Made by a program: the position numbers and the translations under genes. 32,000 nucleotides of DNA, taken from contig OZ245049.1 in assembly GCA_965224465.1 (NCBI GenBank), positions 2,670,001-2,702,000 on the forward strand. Direction: 5' to 3'. The first letter of the stretch is position 1; each line of letters opens with the position of its first letter. Below the pieces are notes generated by a model that was not told where the DNA came from, did not search any database, and saw nothing but the letters and a program-made list of their open reading frames with translations. Positions 5,624 through 28,978 of this stretch are shown here, piece by piece. The stretch is from Flavobacteriaceae bacterium. Lineage in GTDB: Bacteria; Bacteroidota; Bacteroidia; Flavobacteriales; Flavobacteriaceae.

Positions 5624-7192
5624 ATGTTAGATGCACAATTAAAATCGCAAGTGACAACGGTATTTAAAGACCTTAAACAGGACTATACCTTTCACATAAA
5701 CATTGCCACTTCTCATACAAAAAGAGAGGAATTAATAAATTTCTTAAAAGAAGTAGCCTCCTGTTCGGACAAAATTAATTATGAAATAAATTCAGGCGAA
5801 GGATTCTCTTTCTATATAGCAAAAGGAGCTGAAAAAAAGTCAAACATTATATTTAAAACAGTACCAACCGGTCATGAGTTTACCACATTACTTTTGGCAA
5901 TTCTCAACATGGATGGGATCGGGAAAAATTTACCTGACGCTATAATCATCCAACGCATTCAAGCACTGAAAGGAAAAATCACTATAAAAAGTTATATTTC
6001 ACTCAGCTGCACCAATTGCCCCGATGTAGTACAAACACTTAATCTACTAGCAATATACAACCCCAATATCACCCATGAAATCATAGATGGTGCCATCCAC
6101 CAAGAAGAAGTTGACAGCTTAAACATACAGGCAGTTCCATCTGTCTATGCCAACGGTGAATTACTACATGTAGGTCGTTCATCCCTAGGAGAACTCTTAG
6201 ACAAATTAGAAAAACAAGTAGGAAGTAATCACAACACAAGCACAGCATCCGCAACAAAGAAAGAATACGACATAATAGTTGTTGGAGGTGGTCCTGCAGG
6301 AGTGTCCTCTGCAGTTTATTCTGCGAGAAAAGGATTTTCCGTAGCAATTATAGCAGAGCAAATAGGTGGTCAGGTAACAGAAACCGTCGCTATTGAAAAC
6401 ATGATTTCGATTCCTAAAACAACAGGAAGCGAACTCGCTAGTAACTTAAAACTTCACTTAAACGATTATCCAATTACAATCTTAGAGAACAGGACTGTAG
6501 ATAAATTTGAAGTTACAGATGGAATCAAAACCATTTACACTTCCCTAGGAGAAGTATTGACAAGTCCTGCTGTAATTATAGCTACAGGAGCAAGCTGGAG
6601 AAAACTCAATGTCCCTGGAGAAAGTGATTATATCGGATCTGGAGTTGCTTTTTGTACACATTGTGACGGTCCATTTTACAAGGACAAAACAGTGGTTGTT
6701 GTAGGAGGCGGAAATTCTGGTTTGGAAGCAGCCATAGACCTATCATCGATAGCTACTAAAGTAACTGTTCTAGAATACATGGATGAAGTGAAAGGAGATG
6801 AAGTATTACAGAAAAAATTAAAAACCTTGAGTAATGTTACCGTAATTACCTCAGCTGAAACACTACAAGTAATTGGAGACGGAAATAAAGTTACTGGAGT
6901 TCAGTTCAAGCACAGAAAATCTGGTGAACTAGAAGAGCTCATTACCGACGGAATATTTGTTCAAATCGGACTCACAGCAAACAGCCAGGTATTTAAAGAA
7001 ATTGTTGAAACCAACAGGATAGGTGAAATTGAAATTGATGTACACTGCAGGACAAAAACACCAGGCATCTATGCCGCTGGAGATGTTTCCATAGTCCCTT
7101 ATAAGCAAATTATAATCGCGATGGGGGAAGGTTCAAAAGCAGCGCTTTCTGCTTTTGAAGATAAAATAAAAGAAGTTCAATTGTGTTCATAA
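5624..7192 (+). CDS. ahpF: Alkyl hydroperoxide reductase subunit F
   Basis: 522 aa. The N-terminal thioredoxin-like domain has CTNC. The FAD motif is VVGGGPAG and the redox-active site is CTHCDGPF. A second dinucleotide fold is VVGGGNSG. Confidence 0.93.
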   Translation: MLDAQLKSQVTTVFKDLKQDYTFHINIATSHTKREELINFLKEVASCSDKINYEINSGEGFSFYIAKGAEKKSNIIFKTVPTGHEFTTLLLAILNMDGIGKNLPDAIIIQRIQALKGKITIKSYISLSCTNCPDVVQTLNLLAIYNPNITHEIIDGAIHQEEVDSLNIQAVPSVYANGELLHVGRSSLGELLDKLEKQVGSNHNTSTASATKKEYDIIVVGGGPAGVSSAVYSARKGFSVAIIAEQIGGQVTETVAIENMISIPKTTGSELASNLKLHLNDYPITILENRTVDKFEVTDGIKTIYTSLGEVLTSPAVIIATGASWRKLNVPGESDYIGSGVAFCTHCDGPFYKDKTVVVVGGGNSGLEAAIDLSSIATKVTVLEYMDEVKGDEVLQKKLKTLSNVTVITSAETLQVIGDGNKVTGVQFKHRKSGELEELITDGIFVQIGLTANSQVFKEIVETNRIGEIEIDVHCRTKTPGIYAAGDVSIVPYKQIIIAMGEGSKAALSAFEDKIKEVQLCS

Positions 7193-7198
7193 TAAATC

Positions 7199-7234
7199 GC
7201 TACACTCATTTAAAATGAAGTGTAGCTTTTTTTT
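7199..7234 (+). terminator. Rho-independent terminator after ahpF
   Basis: gctacact (7199-7206) / agtgtagc (7219-7226), followed by T8. Confidence 0.65.
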
Positions 7235-7544
7235 AGCCTCATTTTATGATAGGATGATACTAAAAACCTCTATTTTTGTTAGGTGATTGATGGAGTCACG
7301 TATCCTAAGCAACTTAGCACAACACTCTTTTCCTCCTTTAAAACAAAAGGAAAAAGCAGCACCTCAATGTCTACAAGCTGTATAAGCGCTCCAAAATCAC
7401 AGTAAAAACCAAAAACAATCCCAAAGATTCTAAGCACATAGTCCTTTGGAAATACATTGGTACAGCAGCAAAAAATGTTCTATTTTAAAACGATCGATTG
7501 CAAAATAGGACGCTATAACAAGACTTAGACAGCCATTAAAAAAT

Positions 7545-8444
7545 ATGAGTTCAACAAAAAAACAAACCATCTCCTTAGTCCTTGGAAGTGGAGGCGCGAG
7601 AGGAATGGCACATGTAGGAGTTATCCGATGGCTAGAAGCCCATAATTTTGAAATTAAAGCCATTTCAGGTTGTTCTATTGGAGCGGCTATTGGAGGCGCC
7701 TATGCGATGGGGAATTTGGACCAATTTGTAGATTGGCTAGACAAATACAAACGAAGCGATATGTATTATATGATCGATTTTATGTTTGGAAAAGGAGGTT
7801 TTGTAAAAGGCGATAAAGTAATGGAAAGGATCAAAACACAAATAGGTACAGATTTGATAGAAAACCTTCCGATCAAATTTACGGCAGTCGCTGCAGACAT
7901 ATATAATGAAGAGGAAGTTTGGTTGTCTAAAGGCCCTTTATGTGAAGCTATTAGAGCCTCCATTTCATTGCCCTTATTTTTTACGCCTTACGAATTGAAT
8001 GGCATCAAACTATTGGATGGAGGCATTTTAAACCCTACACCTATAGAACCAACCTTAACCGATGGAACGGACCTTACAATTGTGGTAAATTTGGGAGGTG
8101 CTCCTGAAGTGAAAATACCCAAAAAAATTGCACAAAAAGACCCTTGGCAGCGCACCTTAGATGTCTATATCAATAAGATGAAAAAATACCGCAACAAAAC
8201 ATCTAACGAATGGAGCATGATGTACATTGCAGATCAGTCTTTTAATGCCATGCAAAATACCATCGCGCAGCAAAAAATGAAAATGTACCCACCAGACTAT
8301 GTCATCAATATCCCTAGAAACAAATGCAATACCTTGGAATTTGAAAAATCTGCAGAAATGATTGCTTATGGCTATGAAATGGCAGAGAAAATAGTAGGTA
8401 AACATAGTGTACCAATTACCATCCAAAGGGATCTCAATAAGTAG
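7545..8444 (+). CDS. Patatin-like phospholipase (RssA/NTE-like)
   Basis: Oxyanion motif GSGGARG, nucleophile elbow GCSIGA (GXSXG) and the catalytic Asp motif LLDGG. The last 11 codons and the stop lie inside repeat copy B. Confidence 0.85.
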   Translation: MSSTKKQTISLVLGSGGARGMAHVGVIRWLEAHNFEIKAISGCSIGAAIGGAYAMGNLDQFVDWLDKYKRSDMYYMIDFMFGKGGFVKGDKVMERIKTQIGTDLIENLPIKFTAVAADIYNEEEVWLSKGPLCEAIRASISLPLFFTPYELNGIKLLDGGILNPTPIEPTLTDGTDLTIVVNLGGAPEVKIPKKIAQKDPWQRTLDVYINKMKKYRNKTSNEWSMMYIADQSFNAMQNTIAQQKMKMYPPDYVINIPRNKCNTLEFEKSAEMIAYGYEMAEKIVGKHSVPITIQRDLNK

Positions 8445-8524
8445 TTTATTTTACGTTCTAGCGTTGTTAAAAAACAGAAAATAATTCCATTTCTTAACCG
8501 TCACTTAGAAGTTGTATTTGGTAT
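8411..8524 (+). repeat. MITE-like intergenic repeat, copy B (internally deleted)
   Basis: accaattaccatccaaagggatctcaataagtagtttattttacgttctagcgttgttaaaaaacag...ccgtcacttagaagttgtatttggtat. It lacks the gatagc/gctatc hairpin module. Confidence 0.75.
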
Positions 8525-11292
8525 TACATACTCAATTTTCGATAGTTGTCTAAGCGGATATTTTTTTGCATAAAATCCCGAATATCTTCCACTGTTAAGT
8601 CCTTCAAAACAGCGTCATAATCGGCAAGATTCTCTAAGGATTCTTGATCGTACAGTAGTTGGAAGATTTTCTGCTCCCATCCAGACCTGTTTTTAGAAGA
8701 GAGCCCTAATGTTTTTCTATTGATAAAACTTTTTTTAAGGGATGCAAGCAATGTTTCCGATACAGGATGTACTTTCATATCCTTTAAGGTTGATACGACA
8801 ATCTCTTCTACTTTATCTGCATTTTCAGGAGCACAGGTATAGTTTACATGAATAGCAAAAAACGGTATTGGAACAGGACGGTATTCATAACTCACATAGG
8901 GAGAATAGACCAATCCATTTTCTTCTCTAAGTTTTGACAAGAGTAGTTCACGAATTAAAGACACGGTGATTTTTAATTTAAAAGACGATTTAAACCCCAA
9001 ATCATAGGTTCCGTAAAAATACAAAGATTCCATAACTTGTTCTTGCGCTCTATTTACAACATAAACAACCGGCGCTTGCTTTTCTACCGAAAACAACTCC
9101 TTGTTCTCCTTAAATCCTTGTCCTTTAGGAAGCCCTCCAATATAGGTATCTATCAAGGGCATTAACTGGTCCACAGTAGCATCTCCAGTAATTATAAAAG
9201 TCCACCCCTTTGCTCCAGAAAACAATTTCTCATAATAATCATGCATTTTATCAATGCGCAATAATTTCAATTCTTTTGTCGTTTCAGGACCTTTTCTATC
9301 TTCAAAATACGTCCCTTTTAACACCGCTTCCTTGATAGAAAACTGACGTGCTGGTGTTGCATTTATTCGAAGGTAATCATGACTCGCATTGTATTGACTG
9401 CGAATGGATTTACGAAACTCCTTTTTATTGACGGAGATCGCTGTCATTTTTAAAAATAGGTACTTAAAAAAATCTTCTAGGTGCTTGTTCTCTGTAAAAC
9501 CATCTGTTCTTCTGTCAAACTCCGTAATATTTAAATTTAAAGCCATCATTTTATCGGCTAAATATTTTTCTAGATCGCGATCATTTAGGTTTCCTACGCC
9601 TCCTAAATCTAGATAAGCGGTTGTCGATTCATAGCACATATAGTCCTGTTTGGACAAGGAGGAAGTACCTCCAAGGGCAAAAGATTTTAAATAGATTTCA
9701 CCACTACCATCCTTAATCGGCTTTACAATTACAGTGGCTCCATTTTTATAATGCAACTCGGTAATATCTAATGATGGGTGGTATTTTTTTCCTATAAGGT
9801 TCGCGGTAAGTATAGTAGAAATTTTCAAATCTGTAAACATTTTTTCAGAAACGCTTTTCTTTTGTCGCTTAAAACGATACTTAGAACTATGTTTGTTTTT
9901 AAGAGATGTGATGACAGATTGTACGTCTTTAGACGTAAGTTGCTCTTTACTTTTTACAGTTATTTTACCATAAACAAGTATTGATTTAGCTGCCAAAAGT
10001 TCCTCCGTATAATGTAAAATAGCTGTAGCATCAATGGAAGCAATCATTTTTTTTGCAATAGCATTCTCTTGGATTGGATTTTTAGGCAATTGTATTCCTA
10101 AAAAGCAATCGATCGATTCTTGAACGATTGCAATGGATGTTTTTTCGAGGATTGAATCATCCGAATAGTGCGCTAAAAGTTCCGCTTTATAAAAATCTAA
10201 TTCTCGATCACTAAGTCCATGAGCTATTAAACGTCTAAATTCATAAAGCCCCTTCTCTAGCCCTATTTTAAGTGTCTGATCGGTTGTAAATTCAAGAATT
10301 TCATATGCGGCATCAGCTAAAAAATAAGAAGAAGAAAAACGAAGATCTCGGATTTTACGGGTGTTTTTTGTACGGATTCTATGAGTTAATAGGTCCCGAG
10401 TCAAACGTCCAATCAATCCATTTTTAGTAATGGAAGTTGTGTTTTTCTTGGGCCACATAATTGTTAATTTCGAGTTCTTTATAAGACTATCCTTCACTAT
10501 TTCCACCTTGATCCTAGTCCCTGTAAGTAGCGATTCCTGACGAGATGGTCCTACTGTTTTTTTTGAAAGACCCCCAAAAACATATTGGATATCCCTTGCC
10601 ATAACAGCAGTATCTATAGCACCCACTACAATTACAGCCGCATTATCAGTTCCGTAATGTCGGGTGTAATACGCTCGTAAACCAGATTGATTAATGGCCA
10701 TTACACTTTGTGCATTTCCTAAAGGATGACGGGCTATATAATGCGAATTATTAACCTTGAAAGAATAAATAGGTACTGCTTTTACCGCAGCCTTTTGTTC
10801 TTCTAAGACTATTTTTCGTTCCGTTTTTATGTGCGCTTGATCCAATGTGAGTTCAGCAAGGACTTCGGAAAAGAAGTGGAGCACCAAAGAAATGGTTTCC
10901 TTACTATCACTTGGAACATGTACACTGTACACCGTGTAATCATAACCTGTATAGGCATTATAATCAATTCCTAATTGCAGTCCTTTCTTATGTAACGCTT
11001 CTACAAAATCAGTATTGGGCATGTGCGTACTTCCTTTGAATGCCATGTGTTCTATAAAATGCGCATAGCCTAATTGCGTATCCGTTTCGTTTAAAGAACC
11101 TGTTTTAACAACTAAAAATAGTTGCACCCTATTTTCTGGAAGCGCATTTTCCTGTAAGAAATAGGTCAATCCATTACCTAAGGTTTCCTGAACAATTTTT
11201 TGGTTTACAACCGTTTTTTCTTGTTGAGCCGACAGCAATAAAACATGAAAAAGTACGGTGATAAAAAGGCTTATTTTTTTTATAAAGTTCAT
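8524..11292 (-). CDS. M16-family (pitrilysin/insulinase-like) zinc peptidase, two-unit, secreted
   Basis: Inverted zinc motif HFIEH (HxxEH) near the N-terminus. About 920 aa, consistent with tandem active and inactive M16 halves. A signal-like start MNFIKKISLFITVLFHVLLLSAQ (ATG at 11292) is preferred over the upstream Met at 11322. Confidence 0.85.
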   Translation of the reverse strand: MNFIKKISLFITVLFHVLLLSAQQEKTVVNQKIVQETLGNGLTYFLQENALPENRVQLFLVVKTGSLNETDTQLGYAHFIEHMAFKGSTHMPNTDFVEALHKKGLQLGIDYNAYTGYDYTVYSVHVPSDSKETISLVLHFFSEVLAELTLDQAHIKTERKIVLEEQKAAVKAVPIYSFKVNNSHYIARHPLGNAQSVMAINQSGLRAYYTRHYGTDNAAVIVVGAIDTAVMARDIQYVFGGLSKKTVGPSRQESLLTGTRIKVEIVKDSLIKNSKLTIMWPKKNTTSITKNGLIGRLTRDLLTHRIRTKNTRKIRDLRFSSSYFLADAAYEILEFTTDQTLKIGLEKGLYEFRRLIAHGLSDRELDFYKAELLAHYSDDSILEKTSIAIVQESIDCFLGIQLPKNPIQENAIAKKMIASIDATAILHYTEELLAAKSILVYGKITVKSKEQLTSKDVQSVITSLKNKHSSKYRFKRQKKSVSEKMFTDLKISTILTANLIGKKYHPSLDITELHYKNGATVIVKPIKDGSGEIYLKSFALGGTSSLSKQDYMCYESTTAYLDLGGVGNLNDRDLEKYLADKMMALNLNITEFDRRTDGFTENKHLEDFFKYLFLKMTAISVNKKEFRKSIRSQYNASHDYLRINATPARQFSIKEAVLKGTYFEDRKGPETTKELKLLRIDKMHDYYEKLFSGAKGWTFIITGDATVDQLMPLIDTYIGGLPKGQGFKENKELFSVEKQAPVVYVVNRAQEQVMESLYFYGTYDLGFKSSFKLKITVSLIRELLLSKLREENGLVYSPYVSYEYRPVPIPFFAIHVNYTCAPENADKVEEIVVSTLKDMKVHPVSETLLASLKKSFINRKTLGLSSKNRSGWEQKIFQLLYDQESLENLADYDAVLKDLTVEDIRDFMQKNIRLDNYRKLSM

Positions 11293-17435: not shown

Positions 17436-18425
17436 TAGGGTTACCCTCTTAAGTCGCAATATATTTGATTGATTTATAGGCTATTGGTTTTTCTTTACAC
17501 ATTCTTTTTAGTAGGTTTTCTAAGATGTTTTCTCTAAAATTGAGTCGATTAAATCGATAGAAATACTCTTGAATGTATTGATTTATATACTCTTTCTCAC
17601 AATACGAATGAACGCCTCTTAACCAATTTTTAAAGTTTCTTATCTGAAAATGTAGCATCTTAAAATTCTCACCATTATTAGATAATATTTGTGTTAAATT
17701 TGGGAAGTTCTTTTTTAAAGGTTTATATCCTGACCAGCCATCTGTAACTATATTGGCATCAAACTTTATATGTTTCTCAAATATTGGTTTTAATGATTTG
17801 CAACTATAATCTTCTATCACCTTTGCGTATGCTCTGCCTGGTTTACCATTTCTATTTTCAATGGCAATTACAACTCTAATTTTAGTAGCTGATTTACTAC
17901 GTCCTTGCTCTCCTTTTTTTGGTGTACCTATTTCAAACTCGTCTACATGAACTTCTTTTTCTAAAGGATATTTCTCACTACTTTTCATTGCTTCTTGTAC
18001 TTTTCTTCTAAACAACCAAGCTGTCATCTGTTTAACACCGTGCCTTTCTGCTAACCAAATACTATTCGCTCCTTTCTTACTGGTAACTATATCATAAGTC
18101 ATTTCAAAGGCTTCTACAATACCAAATTTAACTTTATGAAATAGAGTGTTCGCAGTTGGAGACTCATCATATCCGCATTTTGTACAACGTCTATTATACG
18201 CTCTTTTTCCTTTTAAAAACTTTGTGTTTTTACATTTAAAACAGGAAAAACCTTCTTCCCATTTTACAGATGATAAAAAAGATAAACATAAACTCTCTTC
18301 TCCAAACTTAGTGTGAAATTCTTTACGAGATAATTCTTTTAATATTTTCATAGCTTTCTTTTTCTAAAAGTAAAAAATCCTTTCAGAAAAACAAAATATT
18401 AGTGAGATTTAAATAGGTAACCCTA
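17436..18425 (-). mobile_element. IS1595-family insertion sequence (990 bp) with intact target-site duplication
   Basis: Terminal inverted repeats tagggttacc... (17436) and ...ggtaacccta (18425). They are perfect for 10 bp, and by hand count about 19 of 26 positions match. They are flanked by the 8-bp direct repeat aaaaagta at 17428-17435 and 18426-18433. One transposase ORF lies inside. Confidence 0.85.
17449..18351 (-). CDS. IS1595-family (ISXO2-like) DDE transposase with N-terminal zinc ribbon
   Basis: N-terminal CxxC...CxxC zinc ribbon (CFKCKN...CTKCGY), then a DDE-type core (HVDEFEIG...IVTDGWSGY...). The length of 300 aa is typical. Confidence 0.88.
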   Translation of the reverse strand: MKILKELSRKEFHTKFGEESLCLSFLSSVKWEEGFSCFKCKNTKFLKGKRAYNRRCTKCGYDESPTANTLFHKVKFGIVEAFEMTYDIVTSKKGANSIWLAERHGVKQMTAWLFRRKVQEAMKSSEKYPLEKEVHVDEFEIGTPKKGEQGRSKSATKIRVVIAIENRNGKPGRAYAKVIEDYSCKSLKPIFEKHIKFDANIVTDGWSGYKPLKKNFPNLTQILSNNGENFKMLHFQIRNFKNWLRGVHSYCEKEYINQYIQEYFYRFNRLNFRENILENLLKRMCKEKPIAYKSIKYIAT

Positions 18426-23263: not shown

Positions 23264-23569
23264 TTATTTATATTTTTTAAAAATCTTAGCATCTGCTACA
23301 AACGTCCCAAAAGGGATGATAGAAGCCAACAAAGCCCAAAAAGTAGTTTTTAAAGACCATTTAACGCTAAACTGAACCACAAAAACAAGGAACACATACA
23401 GCATAAACAATACTCCATGAACCATTCCTACAGGGCGTGTAGGCTCTGGCATATCGAAAAGATACTTCATAGGCATGGTAATACCTAAAATCACCAAATA
23501 AGACACTCCTTCTATGAAAGCTACCAATCGTAAAAAACCAAGGCTTTTATTAAAGTCTTTTTCCATCAT
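23264..23569 (-). CDS. Small integral membrane protein (DUF3817-like)
   Basis: 101 aa with three or four hydrophobic helices. The pattern FLRLVAFIEGVSYLVIL...PVGMVHGVLFMLY resembles the DUF3817 family. Confidence 0.65.
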   Translation of the reverse strand: MMEKDFNKSLGFLRLVAFIEGVSYLVILGITMPMKYLFDMPEPTRPVGMVHGVLFMLYVFLVFVVQFSVKWSLKTTFWALLASIIPFGTFVADAKIFKKYK

Positions 23570-23656
23570 ACATCAATTAAATTTGAAGGCAAAAATACTA
23601 AAACCTTCTGAAAAACACACGGTAAACAGTGAGGAAAATAAGAACTATAAAATACA

Positions 23657-23727
23657 CCAACCAAACCGCTACTTTAGATTAAAAAACAATTCTATTTCTA
23701 AACTGTCTCTTGGGAATGTGTTGATAT
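23657..23727 (+). repeat. Right-end fragment of the MITE-like repeat (F-type variant), copy H
   Basis: ccaaccaaaccgctactttagattaaaaaacaattctatttctaaactgtctcttgggaatgtgttgatat. It shares a 29-nt perfect block (23675-23703) with 27552-27580. Confidence 0.6.
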
Positions 23728-24056
23728 AAGAGTATTTGTTGCATAAAACGTAATATAAAAAAGTCAACATCTACAAAAAATATTTCAGGACATTACCCCT
23801 AACAGAGAATCAAGTTGAAAACACTCTTTAAAAATAGAATTTCACAGCAAACAAACAACAGACTACAACTAGATGACTCCTTGACATCTACTCCTTCATA
23901 AAGACACGCTACGATACAAATATTCAATCGAAAAGGCAATCAAACAGCGAACGATCTAAAATAATCCAATCAATAAGCTGTACTATAAGGTATTACCGAT
24001 ACATCCGCTCTAACGGTTAAAACTATAATAAAAATAGTGCACATAACATTATTTTG

Positions 24057-24064
24057 TATATTTG
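24057..24064 (+). promoter_or_regulatory. Candidate Bacteroidota -7 promoter box (TAnnTTTG)
   Basis: tatatttg matches the TAnnTTTG sigma-A -7 consensus of Bacteroidota exactly and lies about 180 bp upstream of the Hcp-like start. No convincing -33 TTG was seen. Confidence 0.2.
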
Positions 24065-24242
24065 AACAATGTCTATTAACGCATATACGGTAAAAAACTA
24101 CCACTATCTATGTTCAAAAACAATGGGCATATCATAATAAACACATAGTTACTAAACAACAAGAAATGAAATGGTCAAGTATTAATTAAAAAACAGCAAT
24201 AAACTAAAGTACAACACCAATTTACACTAGAAATAAAAAAAT

Positions 24243-24950
24243 ATGAGCAGTTTTAAAGGCATTGCCAAAATAGACGGAAAAGAAAGAAATTTATTAAGAG
24301 CCGAATACACATTATACAAATTACGAGACATCACTGGAAATCCAACTACATCCACTCGCAAAACACCAATTCAATTAATGTTTGAATCAACTGGATTTGA
24401 TGACGACTTGTACTATTATATGTTTTCAGCGAATGCTAGTTTTAGCGGAGAGTTACTTTTTTATGACCGAGATGGATTAAAAACACTGTATAAAGTAGAG
24501 TTTCATAACGCTTACATTATAGGGCTTACTGAAGAATTCAACCACGAAGACAATTTACCTTTACACATTAAATTATCTATAACCTGTGGTGCCGTTAAAA
24601 TAAAAGGAGTTAAAAAATTAGAAAACTGGGTATTTAACGACCCTTTTGTAAATATTAAAGAAACGAAACTTGAAAGAAAAGAAGAACCACATTTGATTGA
24701 TTTCTATTACGTAGACACAGAAAACAACAGGGAACCCAAACTAACCTACGGAGATGAAATTTATTTAATTGTAGAAAGTCAAGGGATGATTGGAGATACG
24801 GTAGATTTAAAACTCAATGACAAAACACTAGACTTTACATACAAAGGAAACCGTCTTAAAAACGACACTATTGAAGATTACAAAATAAGAACTAACAGAG
24901 ATAAAATATCTCTTACAGTAATTGAAGAAGATAACGAAGAATTAGAATAA
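24243..24950 (+). CDS. tssD: Bacteroidota-type T6SS tube protein Hcp/TssD with a ~100-aa C-terminal extension
   Basis: Residues 1-~128 follow the Bacteroidales/Flavobacterial TssD pattern: F-x-A-x-L-x-x-x-GKE-x-x-L, Y-x-L-x-x-D-x-x-G-x-P, ESTxxD, an F-x-x-xD block, E-F-x-N-A-Y-I, then P-L-x-I-x-L-S-I and IKI-G-x-x-x-x-NW. Canonical TssD ends around there, but this ORF continues for about 100 more residues. Confidence 0.72.
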   Translation: MSSFKGIAKIDGKERNLLRAEYTLYKLRDITGNPTTSTRKTPIQLMFESTGFDDDLYYYMFSANASFSGELLFYDRDGLKTLYKVEFHNAYIIGLTEEFNHEDNLPLHIKLSITCGAVKIKGVKKLENWVFNDPFVNIKETKLERKEEPHLIDFYYVDTENNREPKLTYGDEIYLIVESQGMIGDTVDLKLNDKTLDFTYKGNRLKNDTIEDYKIRTNRDKISLTVIEEDNEELE

Positions 24951-24951
24951 A

Positions 24952-25278
24952 ATGAACGAAAATAAATTTCAAATAATATACAAAGGCAAGGTAGAAAAAG
25001 AAATTTCTATTCAACTTCAAGACATCGATCGAGAAATAAAAGAACAACAAAAAGGGACTAACTATACTCGTGTAAACGAAGAAGGCACAACTTTAATGCA
25101 GGTGAAACATGAATTTATAAATATTGGTGAAAGTTTTGCTCAAATAAAATACAATACCTCTGCTACAATAACAGAAAGAGGTACGGTTGTAGTAAGCCAG
25201 TTTAAACAAGAGATTACATCAAGAGAGAAGAAGTTTGGTACTACAAGAATTCAAACGGGAATTTTGAAGGCTCATTAA
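24952..25278 (+). CDS. Small hypothetical protein (possible effector adaptor or chaperone, or the N-terminal part of the downstream toxin)
   Basis: 108-aa ORF whose ATG lies one nucleotide after the Hcp stop. No signal peptide, no TM and no recognised motif. Its 3' end overlaps an open upstream extension of the next ORF. Confidence 0.5.
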   Translation: MNENKFQIIYKGKVEKEISIQLQDIDREIKEQQKGTNYTRVNEEGTTLMQVKHEFINIGESFAQIKYNTSATITERGTVVVSQFKQEITSREKKFGTTRIQTGILKAH

Positions 25279-25367
25279 CTGAAGCTAAACTAGCATTTCC
25301 AGATGTAGATTTTAAAGAATTAAAACAACCCGAAATAGGAAATATAGATCATAGAGAATATGATCAC

Positions 25368-26117
25368 ATGCAAATCAATCCTATCTTACAGCCTTTAACA
25401 TGGGAAACTATTAACGAATATGACGGAGAAAAACAAGGCGGACCAACAACTTGGGAGAAATGGGCAGACGCAACACAGATAGCTTTAGATGTTGTAGGAA
25501 TGATTCCTGCTGTAGGAGAAATAGCAGATTGTATTAATGGAGTTATTTCATTAGCCAGAGGTAATTATGCCGATGCAGCATTAAGTTTTGCCGCAATGAT
25601 TCCTTTTTTCGGAACTGGAGCAACTATAGCAAAACAAGTAAGAAAACTTAAAAAGATAGTTAATCTCGAAAATGCTAAAGGTGTTTACGATATAATTGTA
25701 AAAAACGGAGAAGAAATTCAAGGTGTTTACGACTTAATTATCAAAAACGCAGAAGATGCTCAAGGGTATGTTGGGCAATCTAAAAATATTTTTCAGCGCT
25801 TTACACAACATTTTAACCCTAAAAGAGGTAAATTGGCTCATAAAGTTATAGAGAATGGTTCCGTAATTCATAAAATGGCTGGATCTACCAAATTAGAACG
25901 CGAAATGTATGAACAGTTCGTGATTTTAGAAAAATATGGAGGAGACATTACTAAAAAAGGGAATAGCGAGCTTCATAAACTTTTAAACAAAGTAAATCCT
26001 GTTGGCGGTAGGTTTGATTTAAAATCAAAAACAGGACGAGAATTATTTGATGAAAAAGCATTAAAAATTGCAAAAAAATATAATTTACCAACAACATTTG
26101 ACCCTATACTATTTTAA
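25368..26117 (+). CDS. Polymorphic-toxin-type effector: pre-toxin TG (PT-TG) domain plus a GIY-YIG (URI-type) nuclease domain
   Basis: PT-TG-like segment: ALDVVGMIPAVGEIADCINGVISLARGNYADAALSFAAMIPFFGTGATIAK (two hydrophobic helices and a TG motif). C-terminal GIY-YIG pattern: GVYDL-x12-YVGQS-x6-R-x3-H ... LEREMYEQ ... LLNKVNP. Confidence 0.6.
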   Translation: MQINPILQPLTWETINEYDGEKQGGPTTWEKWADATQIALDVVGMIPAVGEIADCINGVISLARGNYADAALSFAAMIPFFGTGATIAKQVRKLKKIVNLENAKGVYDIIVKNGEEIQGVYDLIIKNAEDAQGYVGQSKNIFQRFTQHFNPKRGKLAHKVIENGSVIHKMAGSTKLEREMYEQFVILEKYGGDITKKGNSELHKLLNKVNPVGGRFDLKSKTGRELFDEKALKIAKKYNLPTTFDPILF

Positions 26118-26119
26118 CT

Positions 26120-27001
26120 ATGTACTTATCAGGCTTTAAAGACGCTCCCTATTTAATGATAAAACCAAATTCAGATTTAGATAACATTAATCCAGATTTC
26201 CTAAAAGACAAATACACGATCAGACTGTCTGGTAAATTTGATGATTTATTTTTGAAAAAATTCAACAAAATCTATAAAAATATTTCTAATTTGGATATCG
26301 GAAACCAATATGGAGATGGAGATAATTCATTTATTTATCAACTAATAAATTTAAAAGGTCTCGTTATTTCACTATATAAAGATTCAAGTTTTATTTTAGA
26401 TTGCAGTAAACTTCCAAAATCACTGTATTCATTACATTTACAAGTTTATTCAAAAAAAAACATACTTAATATTGAAGCTTTAAATAAAACAGATTTACAA
26501 CACCTAACAATTTCAGATTACGACGAAAAAGACCTGACAAAATTAAGTAGCTTAACGCATTTAAAAAGTTTAAGTTTTAAAACTGCTAAAATAAAATCAT
26601 TAAAAGGCATTGAACCATTAAGCAATCTTACATGTCTTTCTTTTGGAGGAGTAAGAAGCCTTACAGATATCTCACAAATAACAACTTTACAAAAACTAAA
26701 ATATCTAGAATTTGATATTTGTTGGAAATTAGAAGATTTCAGTCCCATAGGAAATATTAAAGAGCTGGAAGTTTTAGAACTTATGGATTGTAAAAACTTA
26801 GCTTCTATTAAATTTGTAAAGGCAACACATAAGTTGAGGCAACTATACACTTTAGGCACAACAATAATTAATGATTTTGACACAACTCCCGCTGAAAACA
26901 TTCCTATTTATTTTGGAAGTCGTGCTTCAAAAAAATACAATCAAGAATACCCCGATAAAGAAATAAAAGAAGGACAAAAATCTTGGAGTAACTATTTGTA
27001 A
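26120..27001 (+). CDS. Cytoplasmic leucine-rich-repeat protein (candidate cognate immunity protein)
   Basis: About 7 tandem LRR units of roughly 22 aa (LTHLKSLSFKTAKIKSLKGIEPLSNLTCLSFGGVRSLTDISQITTLQKLKYLEFDICWKLEDFSPIGNIKELEVLELMDCKNL). No signal peptide. The ATG is 2 nt after the toxin stop. The LRR call is firm; the immunity role is inferred. Confidence 0.65.
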   Translation: MYLSGFKDAPYLMIKPNSDLDNINPDFLKDKYTIRLSGKFDDLFLKKFNKIYKNISNLDIGNQYGDGDNSFIYQLINLKGLVISLYKDSSFILDCSKLPKSLYSLHLQVYSKKNILNIEALNKTDLQHLTISDYDEKDLTKLSSLTHLKSLSFKTAKIKSLKGIEPLSNLTCLSFGGVRSLTDISQITTLQKLKYLEFDICWKLEDFSPIGNIKELEVLELMDCKNLASIKFVKATHKLRQLYTLGTTIINDFDTTPAENIPIYFGSRASKKYNQEYPDKEIKEGQKSWSNYL

Positions 27002-27334
27002 CGAGAACAAAACATAGCTCCTAAAAACTAAAATAGAAACGGCTTATTCCTGTTTCACATACAATCATAAAAAAAAGACAATAAAACGAGAATTTATCCA
27101 TAAAATAACTCAAAACAAACAGACACTATTACACACCACAAGGCATTTGGAGAGGGAAGTTACTTCCCTCCTGACGGATATGGTTTAGAAAAAAACTCCA
27201 AATAAACAATATAAATAATTCTGGTATTCTACACTATTGGCCAGTAAAATACGCAGCATTCACTTTTATCAAAATACAACATACAATCGTTTTTTTTTGC
27301 GCTATATAAAAAACAAAACTCTCCAAACAAATAA

Positions 27335-27445
27335 CACCAATTACAATTCAAAATAACCGATATAATTAGGTTGTTTTACGTTCTAGCGTTGTTGAAAAAC
27401 AGAACGATAGCTACGGCTATCCATCCATTCCCCGCCTAACTATAA
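27335..27445 (+). repeat. MITE-like intergenic repeat, copy E (first of a head-to-tail pair, right end missing)
   Basis: caccaattacaattcaaaataaccgatataattaggttgttttacgttctagcgttgttgaaaaacagaacgatagctacggctatccatccattccccgcctaactataa. Confidence 0.8.
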
Positions 27446-27605
27446 CACCAATTAAAATTCAAAATGACAGATATAAATAGTTTATTTTACGTTCTATCGT
27501 TCTTAAAAAATAGAACGACAGCTACGGCTATCCATCCATTCCCCGCCTAACTAGATTAAAAAACAATTCTATTTCTAAACCTTCACTTGGGGATGTATTT
27601 GGCAT
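27446..27605 (+). repeat. MITE-like intergenic repeat, copy F (full length, variant right arm)
   Basis: caccaattaaaattcaaaatgacagatataaatagtttattttacgttctatcgttcttaaaaaatagaacgacagctacggctatcc...ctagattaaaaaacaattctatttctaaaccttcacttggggatgtatttggcat. Confidence 0.8.
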
Positions 27606-27701
27606 AAGAGATAAGACAAGAACAATCATGAATAAATAACCTATTAAATCAATTCATTCTTTTTAGAATCCCTAAATTTGTTTGATATAAAAACAAGACA
27701 C

Positions 27702-28978
27702 ATGGATAAATCTTCTCAAGAGTTATTAGCATTTATAGATAAAAGCAGCACTTCGTTTCACGCAGTAGATGTGATACAAAAAAAACTAGACACCTTAGAC
27801 TACGAGCAACTTATAGAAACCGAAAAGTGGCATATTTCTGCGAACTCAAAATATTATATCACGCGAGCAGACGGTTCATTATTGATGATTCATACTCCAA
27901 AAAATATCAGCAAGTCAAACCCATTTAAGATGATTGGTGCGCATACCGATTCTCCTTGTTTAAAAGTAAAAAGCAACCCTACTTCTATAAAATCGGGCTA
28001 TTGCATGCTAAACGTAGAAGTTTATGGAGGTGTTTTACTCAGCAGTTGGTTTGACAAAGACATCCAAATAGGAGGTCGTGTTTTTACTGAAAACAAGGCA
28101 GGGGAATTAAAAAGTCACCTCATCACTTTACCCTATAAATTACGCATTCCTCGCTTGGCAATACATTTAGACAGGGAGGTAAACAAAGCAGGTTTTAAAA
28201 TCAACGCGCAGGAACACGTGTTCCCTATTATGGGATTAGACACCAGCATTTCTTTTGACAAATTACTATTAAAAGAGATAACAAACAGCGATGGTCTCAC
28301 TATTTTAAGTACCGATTTGTTTTTATTTGATGCCCAAGCATCCAGTTTTGGAGGAGTCGAAAACGAATTTATTTACGCACCTCGATTGGATAATTTATCA
28401 AGTACACACGCTGCATTGGAATCGTTAAAAACACAAGATTTCCACCATGATAATTTTCAAGTAGCTGTATTTTTTCAGCATGAAGAAATTGGTTCTAAAA
28501 GTCAAAACGGAGGAGACTCCAACTTTTACAAGTGAGTTTAAATCGAATTACCAGTGCTTTGGACTGGAAAAACGAAGACTTCTCACAGTCCATGGCTAAA
28601 TCGTATTTTATTTCTGCAGACATGGCACATGCAGTACACCCGAATTATGCAGAAAAACACGATAAAAACCACCAACCACATATAAACAAAGGACTTGTAA
28701 TCAAAGCCAATGCCAATATCCGATACGCTACTGATGCGTTTTCTATTGCAAAATTCAAGCAATGGTGTCACAAAGCCGGCGTTTCCTACCAAGATTTCTG
28801 TTCTAGAAACGATGTAGGCTGTGGATCTACCATAGGCCCTATGACGGCTTCAAAACTAGGAGTAGCCACTATAGATATCGGAAATCCAATGCTTTCCATG
28901 CACAGTATTCGTGAAATGGCAGGAAGCAAAGACCACGGAGAATTAATTAAAGTTTTCAATGTTTTTTACAAGAGTTAA
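27702..28978 (+). pseudogene. apeB: M18-family aspartyl aminopeptidase, interrupted by a -1 frame break
   Basis: Two ORFs overlap by 4 nt (27678-28535 frame 0, 28532-28978 frame 2). Together they rebuild a ~430-aa M18 aminopeptidase (HTDSPCLKVK, EEIGS..., MHSIREM). The break is at a T4 run (28524-28527), and one extra T would give ...GGDSNFLQVSLNRI... The probable true start is the ATG at 27702. Confidence 0.8.

Follow-up and report, generated by a model that had tools for sequence, protein, structure and literature searches.

URI/GIY-YIG toxins (Tox-URI1 and Tox-URI2), delivery by type VI secretion systems (T6SS) and leucine-rich-repeat immunity proteins (Imm-LRR) are described classes (Zhang et al. 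2012, PMC3482391). PT-TG is an α-helical module with a TG motif that precedes nucleases (Zhang et al. 2011, PMC3113570), and the 15 residues of its core, in which Gly, Asp and Arg are conserved, are predicted to form a loop of low confidence (Pandoomain 2026, PMC13483458). In the Bacteroidales, minor Hcp proteins cosegregate with the effectors encoded downstream of them and recognise them, as has been described for Hcp1-Hcp2 with Bte1 (PMC13213661). The locus analysed here can be compared with all of these systems. It lies in a 32,000-nucleotide (nt) stretch of a Flavobacteriaceae bacterium (assembly GCA_965224465.1, contig OZ245049.1, positions 2,670,001 to 2,702,000), hereafter called the window, and contains an ATG-started open reading frame (ORF) at 25368..26117 (+) that encodes a protein of 249 amino acids (aa; 27.7 kDa). 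A preliminary description had located this ORF correctly and had read it as a short effector combining a PT-TG module with a GIY-YIG-type nuclease fold. The results indicate, with a probability of about 0.8, that it is the back part of a gene of about 388 codons encoding an Hcp-linked T6SS toxin of three parts (an N-terminal domain, a helical module and a GIY-YIG nuclease domain), followed by a leucine-rich-repeat (LRR) immunity gene.

Structure of the effector gene

Among the 99 proteins found in the search for homologues, the best 69 are mostly 357-420 aa long, against 249 aa in the window, and most of them have a conserved N-terminal region of about 130 aa (the N-domain), of which about 107 aa are β-rich. 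The closest named homologue, P0002 from Tenacibaculum (377 aa, 74% identical), begins with MSENKFQVIYKGKVEKE, which is also the start of the annotated 108-aa ORF that precedes the 249-aa one. When P0002 was compared with the window by tblastn, its residues 6-91 matched 24967..25224 in frame 1 (79% identity) and its residues 93-377 matched 25227..26114 in frame 3 (73% identity). Read upstream of its ATG, the frame of the 249-aa ORF continues as ...REEVWYYKNSNGNFEGSLTEAKLAFPDVDF..., matching the homologues, and the frame-3 translation of the stretch just before this ATG, EEVWYYKNSNGNFEGSLTEAKLAFPDVDF, agrees with them as well. These 47 family-conserved residues (93-139) are in an open frame and yet are translated by neither annotated ORF, being upstream of the annotated ATG, which falls at a non-conserved linker position of the family alignment.

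One base is missing where the two frames meet, in the codon for Gly92, a residue conserved in at least 90% of the family alignment. In fact, adding one base at 25224-25226 restores an uninterrupted ORF of 388 aa (43.9 kDa), which gives the best global score against P0002, and apart from the missing base the effector coding sequence is free of stop codons or other decay. A single gene is split between the 108-aa "hypothetical" protein and the 249-aa "GIY-YIG protein", each of them representing one half of it (Table 1). The restored gene starts 1 nt past the stop codon of the Hcp gene, and the LRR gene starts 2 nt past the effector stop codon.

Table 1. Features of the effector cassette and of the split peptidase gene, in window positions (AF2, AlphaFold2).
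Feature	Position	Strand	Extent and evidence
Hcp/TssD gene	24243..24950	+	235 aa; T6SSiii-type Hcp core at residues 3-130 and C-terminal extension of ~105 aa; Pfam PF17642
Effector codons 1-91, most of the β-rich N-domain	24952..25224	+	tblastn with P0002; N-termini of 51 full-length homologues align
Annotated 108-aa ORF	24952..25278	+	Out of the effector frame beyond 25224
Frameshift site, Gly92 codon	25224..25226	+	One base missing; TSR-G-EEVWYY; GGA reads GA
Effector codons 93-139: last N-domain strand, short helix, linker	25227..25367	+	Frame-3 translation and AF2 model
Reported 249-aa ORF, 3' two-thirds of the effector	25368..26117	+	Homologue lengths and alignment
Predicted helical pre-toxin module	25452..25640	+	Residues 29-91 of the 249-aa ORF
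42-nt in-frame tandem duplication, first GIY-YIG strand	25680..25763	+	Tandem Repeats Finder
Predicted GIY-YIG (URI) nuclease toxin domain	25722..26114	+	Residues 119-249; Pfam PF01541
Leucine-rich-repeat protein gene	26120..27001	+	293 aa; Pfam LRR_14, LRR_EndoS
M18 aminopeptidase gene, split	27678..28978	+	ORFs 27678..28535 (285 aa) and 28532..28978 (148 aa)

Regarding the preliminary description, the lack of a recognisable trafficking domain and the small size that it had pointed out are both consequences of the 1-nt frameshift: a conserved N-terminal region lies upstream in another frame, and the intact product is much longer. The Hcp gene that it had placed beside the ORF is indeed there; it adjoins the true effector start at 24952, not the ATG at 25368. 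It had also considered the protein small enough to be exported inside Hcp. The lumen of one Hcp ring accepts cargo of roughly <25 kDa, and the full-length product of 43.9 kDa exceeds this usual one-ring cargo, so the argument from small size fails.

An autonomous 249-aa effector (PT-TG plus GIY-YIG) without a trafficking domain, carried in the Hcp ring lumen, is very unlikely. The ORF does have an ATG and is annotated as such, the linkage to Hcp is real, and short copies of similar extent exist in other genomes (P0050, 263 aa; P0053, 245 aa; P0063, 273 aa). Nevertheless, P0050 (L027, 5977..6822), the one short copy whose locus was inspected, is an orphan downstream of a full-length effector-LRR pair. 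The non-conserved position of the ATG, the conserved residues encoded in frame before it and the N-domain of most of the best homologues also argue against an autonomous protein, as does the missing match to PT-TG described below.

Concerning the origin of the frameshift, a real pseudogene and an assembly error are given about even odds, each of them falling somewhat short of an even chance when taken alone. If the deletion is real, the effector would be a pseudogene whose N-domain is cut after strand 6, with residues 93-139 untranslated. Decayed or split copies of the family are found elsewhere (a frameshift or duplication inside the module in L034, many stop codons in L038, and the split genes ATE84_4933/4934), the apparently old 42-nt duplication occurs in the window copy only among the family members, an IS1595-type transposase is located 7 kb away, and the LRR and Hcp ORFs are intact. 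The effector would then be dead, and the strain, keeping its Hcp and LRR genes, would still be protected against kin firing the toxin. On the other hand, the coding sequence is otherwise undecayed, and there is a second 1-nt deletion, in the M18 aminopeptidase gene 3.3 kb from the first, which looks more like a systematic assembly error. The two ORFs of that gene match Pfam profile positions 1-284 and 289-432, respectively; its lesion falls in a run of T near 28521-28525, where the insertion of one base yields an ORF of 434 aa.

With two single-base lesions lying within 3.3 kb of each other, an assembly or sequencing error suggests itself, in which case the strain would encode the intact 388-aa effector and make the full-length toxin. 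The two deletions, on a contig of 5.24 Mb, are independent and of a typical homopolymer error pattern (GG>G and T5>T4), and the two gene halves show no further lesions at 73-79% identity to the intact homologue. However, GG is only a 2-base run, and the remaining scanned ORFs of the window match full-length Pfam models without a break.

A programmed -1 ribosomal frameshift, or an effector deliberately split into two proteins, is hardly credible. The ORFs do lie in line and would be joined by a -1 shift near 25224, but a slippery heptamer of the form X XXY YYZ is absent from ACATCAAGAGAGAAGAAG, which makes programmed frameshifting unlikely. Moreover, all intact homologues have a single frame with a Gly codon at the break point, and a split effector would lose the 47 conserved residues.

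Toxin domain, partner gene and pre-toxin module

The 249-aa protein matches the GIY-YIG family of Pfam (PF01541) at residues 124-184 with E=3.3e-6 and 27.7 bits, above the curated cut-off of 22.6. P0002 scores 24.0 bits and more distant module-bearing relatives 30-36 bits, and some close family members fall just under the cut-off (20-22 bits). The ordered catalytic pattern proposed in the preliminary description was found in full: G119-V-Y121, Y134-V-G136-Q-S, R144 and H148 in FQRFTQH, E179 in LEREMYEQ, and N207 in LLNKVNP (249-aa numbering). Y121, Y134, G136, R144, H148, E179 and N207 are invariant or nearly so in the family and are conserved in a more divergent alignment too.

When a profile of this domain was compared with the sequences of the Protein Data Bank (PDB), the homing endonuclease I-TevI came first (1mk0, E=0.0035; 1ln0, E=0.089), followed by five UvrC entries, and the HMMER alignment showed the same register, YVGxxxxxxxRxxxHF, as in I-TevI. 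A single-protein sequence search of the PDB gave chance integrin matches only, and NCBIfam gave nothing significant for the 249-aa protein, with a weak match to grpIintron_endo (E=0.0036). An AF2 model of the C-terminal domain was built from the window's own sequence (25656..26114) with a diverse 28-sequence alignment. It reached a mean predicted local distance difference test (pLDDT) of 84.2 and a predicted template modelling score (pTM) of 0.81, and its elements, β(23-31) β(34-42) α(45-52) β(70-73) α(79-94), follow the GIY-YIG order. The only fold match with a meaningful TM-score was the GIY-YIG domain of UvrC (1yd6), at 0.59-0.61 and with a root-mean-square deviation of 3.4 Å over 90 columns, a match that is not significant in Foldseek (E=2.4, probability 0.3). 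The GIY-YIG assignment is therefore accepted on sequence grounds, the structural support being consistent and not decisive. The domain is basic (isoelectric point, pI, 9.4), and it also ends two Rhs proteins, P0095 and P0164.

The first strand of the domain is duplicated in frame. Tandem Repeats Finder reported a period of 42 nt and 2.3 copies, with 34/42 nt identical between the copies (GVYDIIVKNGEEIQ / GVYDLIIKNAEDAQ), and among 53 aligned family sequences only that of the window has this repeat. In the model of the C-terminal domain, the second copy forms strand β1 and the first one is a low-confidence helix. As the copies have diverged, the duplication may be old or may stem from unequal recombination between alleles.

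The LRR protein encoded just after the toxin domain matches Pfam LRR_14 (E=2.5e-10) and LRR_EndoS (E=7.5e-8) and shows no signal peptide by eye. In a tblastn search over all loci of the family, an LRR homologue directly follows the toxin domain in every one of the 36 loci with downstream sequence (36/36). It is predicted to be the cognate cytoplasmic immunity protein.

These findings also bear on the idea that the protein is not a toxin and that a mobile element's GIY-YIG endonuclease, of the homing, repair or restriction type, lies beside Hcp by chance. The best match among solved structures is a homing endonuclease, and the weak NCBIfam match points in the same direction. Nevertheless, the locus has no DNA-binding, intron or intein context, the domain is fused to a module common to Rhs, VgrG and PAAR toxins, and it ends Rhs proteins as well. 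Furthermore, a covarying LRR gene follows it in every locus with downstream sequence, and arrays of orphan toxin tips and immunity genes are present in the family (see below). This explanation is extremely improbable.

Between the N-domain and the nuclease domain there is a helical module of about 65 aa, with the consensus LDxxQxxLDVVGLIPGxGEIADxxNGxISLARGxYxxAALSFAAMIPFxG. In the AF2 model of P0002 its helices are at 168-182, 190-203 and 206-216 (pLDDT ~80-90). The segments are moderately hydrophobic and amphipathic, with Asp/Glu inside, and their 19-residue Kyte-Doolittle maxima of 1.5-1.65 are not those of classical transmembrane helices. The preliminary description had spoken of two hydrophobic helices ending in FFGTGATIAK; two or three amphipathic helices are indeed predicted, and the TG of this motif is specific to the window. 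The homologues have GTTAT, GNAVT or GSAAT at this place, and only the first Gly is kept (G221 in P0002 numbering).

An exhaustive profile search with the whole protein gave 5586 representative proteins at E<=1e-3, of which 1625 had E<=1e-10 and only 18 had E<=1e-30. Most of the best 150 of the 5586 match only positions ~165-245 of the profile, where the module lies, and the matched proteins reach 2694 aa. The toxin domains found C-terminal to the module include GIY-YIG, AHH, Tox-HNH-EHHH, HNH, LHH, WHH, GH-E, colicin D, DUF7587, Ntox15, Ntox46 and Tox-URI2, and the N-terminal parts of module-bearing proteins include RHS repeats, PT-HINT, VgrG (Phage_GPD, Phage_base_V, DUF2345), PAAR, DUF4280 and Tox-PAAR-like. 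The module is present in Bacteroidota, Bacillota, Chloroflexota, Planctomycetota and Verrucomicrobiota, with genome matches including Aneurinibacillus, Brevibacillus, Paenibacillus, Herpetosiphonaceae, Pirellulaceae and Opitutales; among plasmids, tblastn with the module found a single "hypothetical protein".

Judging from these sequence data, the segment is a real pre-toxin module of polymorphic toxins, shared with varied toxins as had been proposed. Its naming as PT-TG did not hold. The PT-TG model of Pfam (PF14449) does not match the window protein at E<=1 or, at E<=10, any of 8 isolated module segments that represent several phyla. It is absent from the families of 21 module-bearing proteins, from the top 25 of 44 families for 89 more, and from the precomputed Pfam records of P0002, P0043, P0045 and P0061. 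Of the profile searches proposed earlier, the one for GIY-YIG was thus positive and the one for PT-TG negative. Identity with PT-TG is not demonstrable: the Pfam scans do not link the two, and the module fits what has been published on PT-TG only in part. Neither Pfam nor NCBIfam, both searched, has a model for the module. Similarities to DUF4112 (E 0.004-0.2) and to one diphtheria toxin T domain (E=0.047) are sub-threshold and were given no weight. For SPβ YokI, Pfam gives LXG and Tox-SHH only, and no PT-TG.

The module may be a linker or an aid to crossing the target membrane. This putative entry role is suggested by the analogy with the cytoplasm-entry domains of CdiA-CT and by the position of the module after Rhs/HINT cleavage sites.

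N-domain, Hcp and organisation of the cassette

The full-length AF2 model was calculated for P0002 on a 53-sequence alignment (pLDDT 77.8, pTM 0.76). It shows seven long β-strands within residues 2-107 (one of them at 94-107), a short helix (109-115), a strand at 150-158 and, between the module helices and the C-terminal domain, a low-confidence linker (220-244). A Foldseek comparison of this model with the PDB and BFVD gave nothing significant, only low-probability β-barrel or β-sheet look-alikes of the N-domain (OmpA, OmpW, FMO), and a word-index search with the N-domain alone gave four fragments only. The N-domain is confined to Flavobacteriia and one Bacteroidales metagenome-assembled genome (MAG).

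The Hcp gene upstream matches the TssD family of Pfam (PF17642, E=2.4e-24). Its product has a C-terminal extension (residues 131-235, 24633..24947) without any Pfam match, which may be the part that recognises the effector.

A scan of genomes gave 42 loci, in which the full family was found only in Tenacibaculum, Tamlana, Flavobacterium, Myroides, Aquimarina, Lutibacter, Cellulophaga, Flavobacteriaceae MAGs and the one Bacteroidales MAG. Automatic annotation, the only kind that its members have received, calls them "hypothetical" or "GIY-YIG nuclease family protein". The order TssD, effector, LRR recurs in the neighbourhoods of P0002, P0045 and P0061 (Tenacibaculum, Aquimarina and Flavobacteriaceae MAGs), and, much as in the window, Hcp abuts the start of the effector in relatives or runs into it, with an overlap in two loci (L004 and L005). 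By tblastn, the C-terminal extension of Hcp is encoded directly upstream of the effector in 21 loci, and the Hcp core was found in few.

Orphan 3' toxin tips corresponding to effector residues ~271-377 or 292-377 are also present, usually with an LRR gene after them; tips with their own LRR genes were found in L004, L006, L021, L024, L026-L030 and L033. In Aquimarina longa (L004, 10087..12434) tips of residues ~292-377 form an array in which most are followed by their own LRR gene, and similar arrays are seen in L006, L021, L026-L030 and L033. Such arrays are the classic mark of recombination by which toxin tips are displaced. In a tblastn search with P0002, no orphan copies of the effector were found in the window itself. 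Polymorphic toxin cassettes are typically recognised by a toxin-immunity pair, by orphan arrays and by a dedicated delivery partner, all seen in this family, and the locus is an ordinary one of an uncharacterised family. The preliminary description had proposed a polymorphic-type toxin linked genetically with both an Hcp gene and an immunity gene downstream; this is borne out, and the synteny recurs across Flavobacteriia.

Some relatives show other arrangements. In Tenacibaculum and a Flavobacteriaceae isolate (L001, 7395..7949; L031, 3389..3895; L034, 4001..4519), Hcp and the full effector are separated by a toxin-less paralogue. This gene, of 184 aa, is ~43-47% identical to effector residues 28-206 and consists of the N-domain and a degenerate module, without any Pfam match; it may serve as an adaptor or a decoy, or be a remnant. 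Upstream of P0043 (Flavobacterium, L002) there are different genes, and no Hcp was called at this locus. In this Flavobacterium sp. MAG (6495..7334 and 8001..9227), an upstream 279-aa protein and the effector P0043 share the N-terminal motif MEKSF(S/T)..(L/M)GYKS(L/P)F. The Flavobacterium loci with this motif have no Hcp extension directly upstream, and their genes upstream of the effector have no Pfam match; the motif may be an alternative loading signal. In addition, the metagenomic relatives P0149, P0150, P0151 and P0155 carry, before the N-domain, extra N-terminal regions of 135-180 aa that are mutually unrelated and match neither Pfam nor TssD, that of P0149 starting with a β-helix-like MSRIRIVGGKIVKTTGGNHNMY segment. 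A fusion of Hcp and effector in the longer relatives P0149-P0151 was considered and rejected, as these N-termini lack a TssD match.

Taken as a T6SS effector, the protein could act as follows. The dedicated Hcp would recognise the N-domain and carry the effector on a T6SSiii, the Bacteroidota type of the system. The module would serve as a linker or helper for entry into the target cytoplasm, where the GIY-YIG domain would cut nucleic acid, most likely DNA as other GIY-YIG enzymes do, using Y121, Y134, R144, H148, E179 and N207 as predicted catalytic residues. In the producer, the cytoplasmic LRR protein would block the toxin. As no relative of the N-domain was detected, its loading role is read from synteny.

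Several results weigh against this interpretation. No relative of the N-domain was detectable in Pfam, PDB or BFVD, and Hcp is the only T6SS core gene among the scanned ORFs of the window. The Foldseek E-values of the GIY-YIG model are not significant, even for its best GIY-YIG match, and the full-length AF2 model shows neither the GIY-YIG fold nor its hairpin. Finally, the LRR protein is basic (pI 8.7), unlike many nuclease inhibitors, which are acidic.

Other features of the window surround the cassette. Upstream of Hcp, an AT-rich region of ~670 nt (23570..24242), without ORFs of >=50 aa in the cassette direction beyond 23729, presumably holds the promoter; a scan for sigma-70 promoters and terminators was uninformative, with fewer sites than in shuffled sequences, and the sigma-70 model does not apply to Bacteroidota. 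The IS1595-family transposase (DDE_Tnp_IS1595 plus zinc ribbon; 17449..18351, -) is located upstream of the Hcp cassette, at a distance of ~6 kb. The LRR and peptidase genes are separated by 677 nt, in which there are two tandem units of 111 nt (27331..27552), 90% identical, each with a GATAGCCGTAGCTRTC hairpin and then a T-rich tail on the - strand; Rfam gave no match over 23500..27800. The other neighbours are a nitrite-reductase cytochrome operon, SusD/DUF4929 genes, an M16 peptidase and an amino-acid permease.

Comparison with known systems

Literature searches found no paper on a Flavobacteriia Hcp-linked GIY-YIG effector, on the N-domain or on the module. What is somewhat new is the module, which has no domain-library entry (Pfam, NCBIfam), and the way in which the N-domain is paired with the Hcp extension; what is known of polymorphic toxins stays as it was. 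A broader reading would take these as uncatalogued units: the module as a general device by which nuclease toxins enter the cytoplasm, independently of the secretion system, and the N-domain and Hcp extension as a co-evolving recognition pair that loads a 44-kDa cargo on T6SSiii. It is put forward tentatively, as rather unlikely. For annotation, the locus is best treated as a single Hcp-effector-immunity cassette, and a profile for the module would flag many unannotated toxins. For T6SS biology, it offers a Flavobacteriia family in which the Hcp extension, the N-domain, the module and the GIY-YIG/LRR pair can be tested separately.

Concerning the toxin, the likeness to Tox-URI1 is clear: a C-terminal URI/GIY-YIG domain with the Y, YxG, R, E, N signature, occurrence in Bacteroidota, association with T6SS and Rhs (PMC3482391), an immunity gene immediately downstream, and the same toxin domain at the end of the Rhs proteins mentioned above. 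The partners listed for Tox-URI1 are Imm14, Imm26, Imm44 and Imm51 (PMC3482391), whereas the partner of the window family is always an LRR protein. This family also differs in its invariant H148 after the Arg, as in I-TevI, and in an insertion of ~13 residues between the Glu helix and the Asn. The only Tox-URI model in Pfam, PF15653 (Tox-URI2), does not match the window protein. With I-TevI and UvrC (PDB 1mk0, 1ln0 and 1yd6) the domain shares the register of YVG, Arg and HF, the ERE motif and, in its AF2 model, the β-β-α-β-α order, with a TM-score of ~0.6 to 1yd6. However, the sequence match is weak (best E=0.0035), and the window domain lacks a DNA-binding domain, has extra C-terminal helices and stands in a toxin context.

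Regarding the module, it resembles PT-TG in being α-helical, in standing directly before diverse, mostly nuclease toxins and in occurring with many trafficking systems; furthermore, its Gly, Asp and Arg are conserved within ~15 residues (GEIADxxNGxISLAR), which echoes the published PT-TG core. It differs in that it is predicted as confident helices instead of a low-confidence loop and has no conserved TG. The cytoplasm-entry domains of CdiA-CT (PMC9424206) are likewise conserved segments that head the released toxin region and are interchangeable before different nucleases. This is a functional analogy only: the module has no sequence relationship with them, and no membrane-protein receptor is known for it.

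As in Imm-LRR systems, the toxin gene is directly followed by one for an LRR protein, and there are arrays that resemble poly-immunity loci, with orphan toxin tips. Imm-LRR has been described beside toxins of the type V secretion system in other phyla, and a pairing with GIY-YIG in T6SS is absent from the table of PMC3482391.

Finally, the cassette can be set beside those of the Bacteroidales minor Hcps. The window cassette has a single Hcp with a ~105-aa C-terminal extension instead of an Hcp pair, its effector has another N-domain and a nuclease toxin, and it belongs to Flavobacteriia, not to gut Bacteroidales. Moreover, it is an orphan, outside any T6SS cluster in the window. It shares with those cassettes a specialised Hcp gene immediately upstream of the effector and cosegregating with it.

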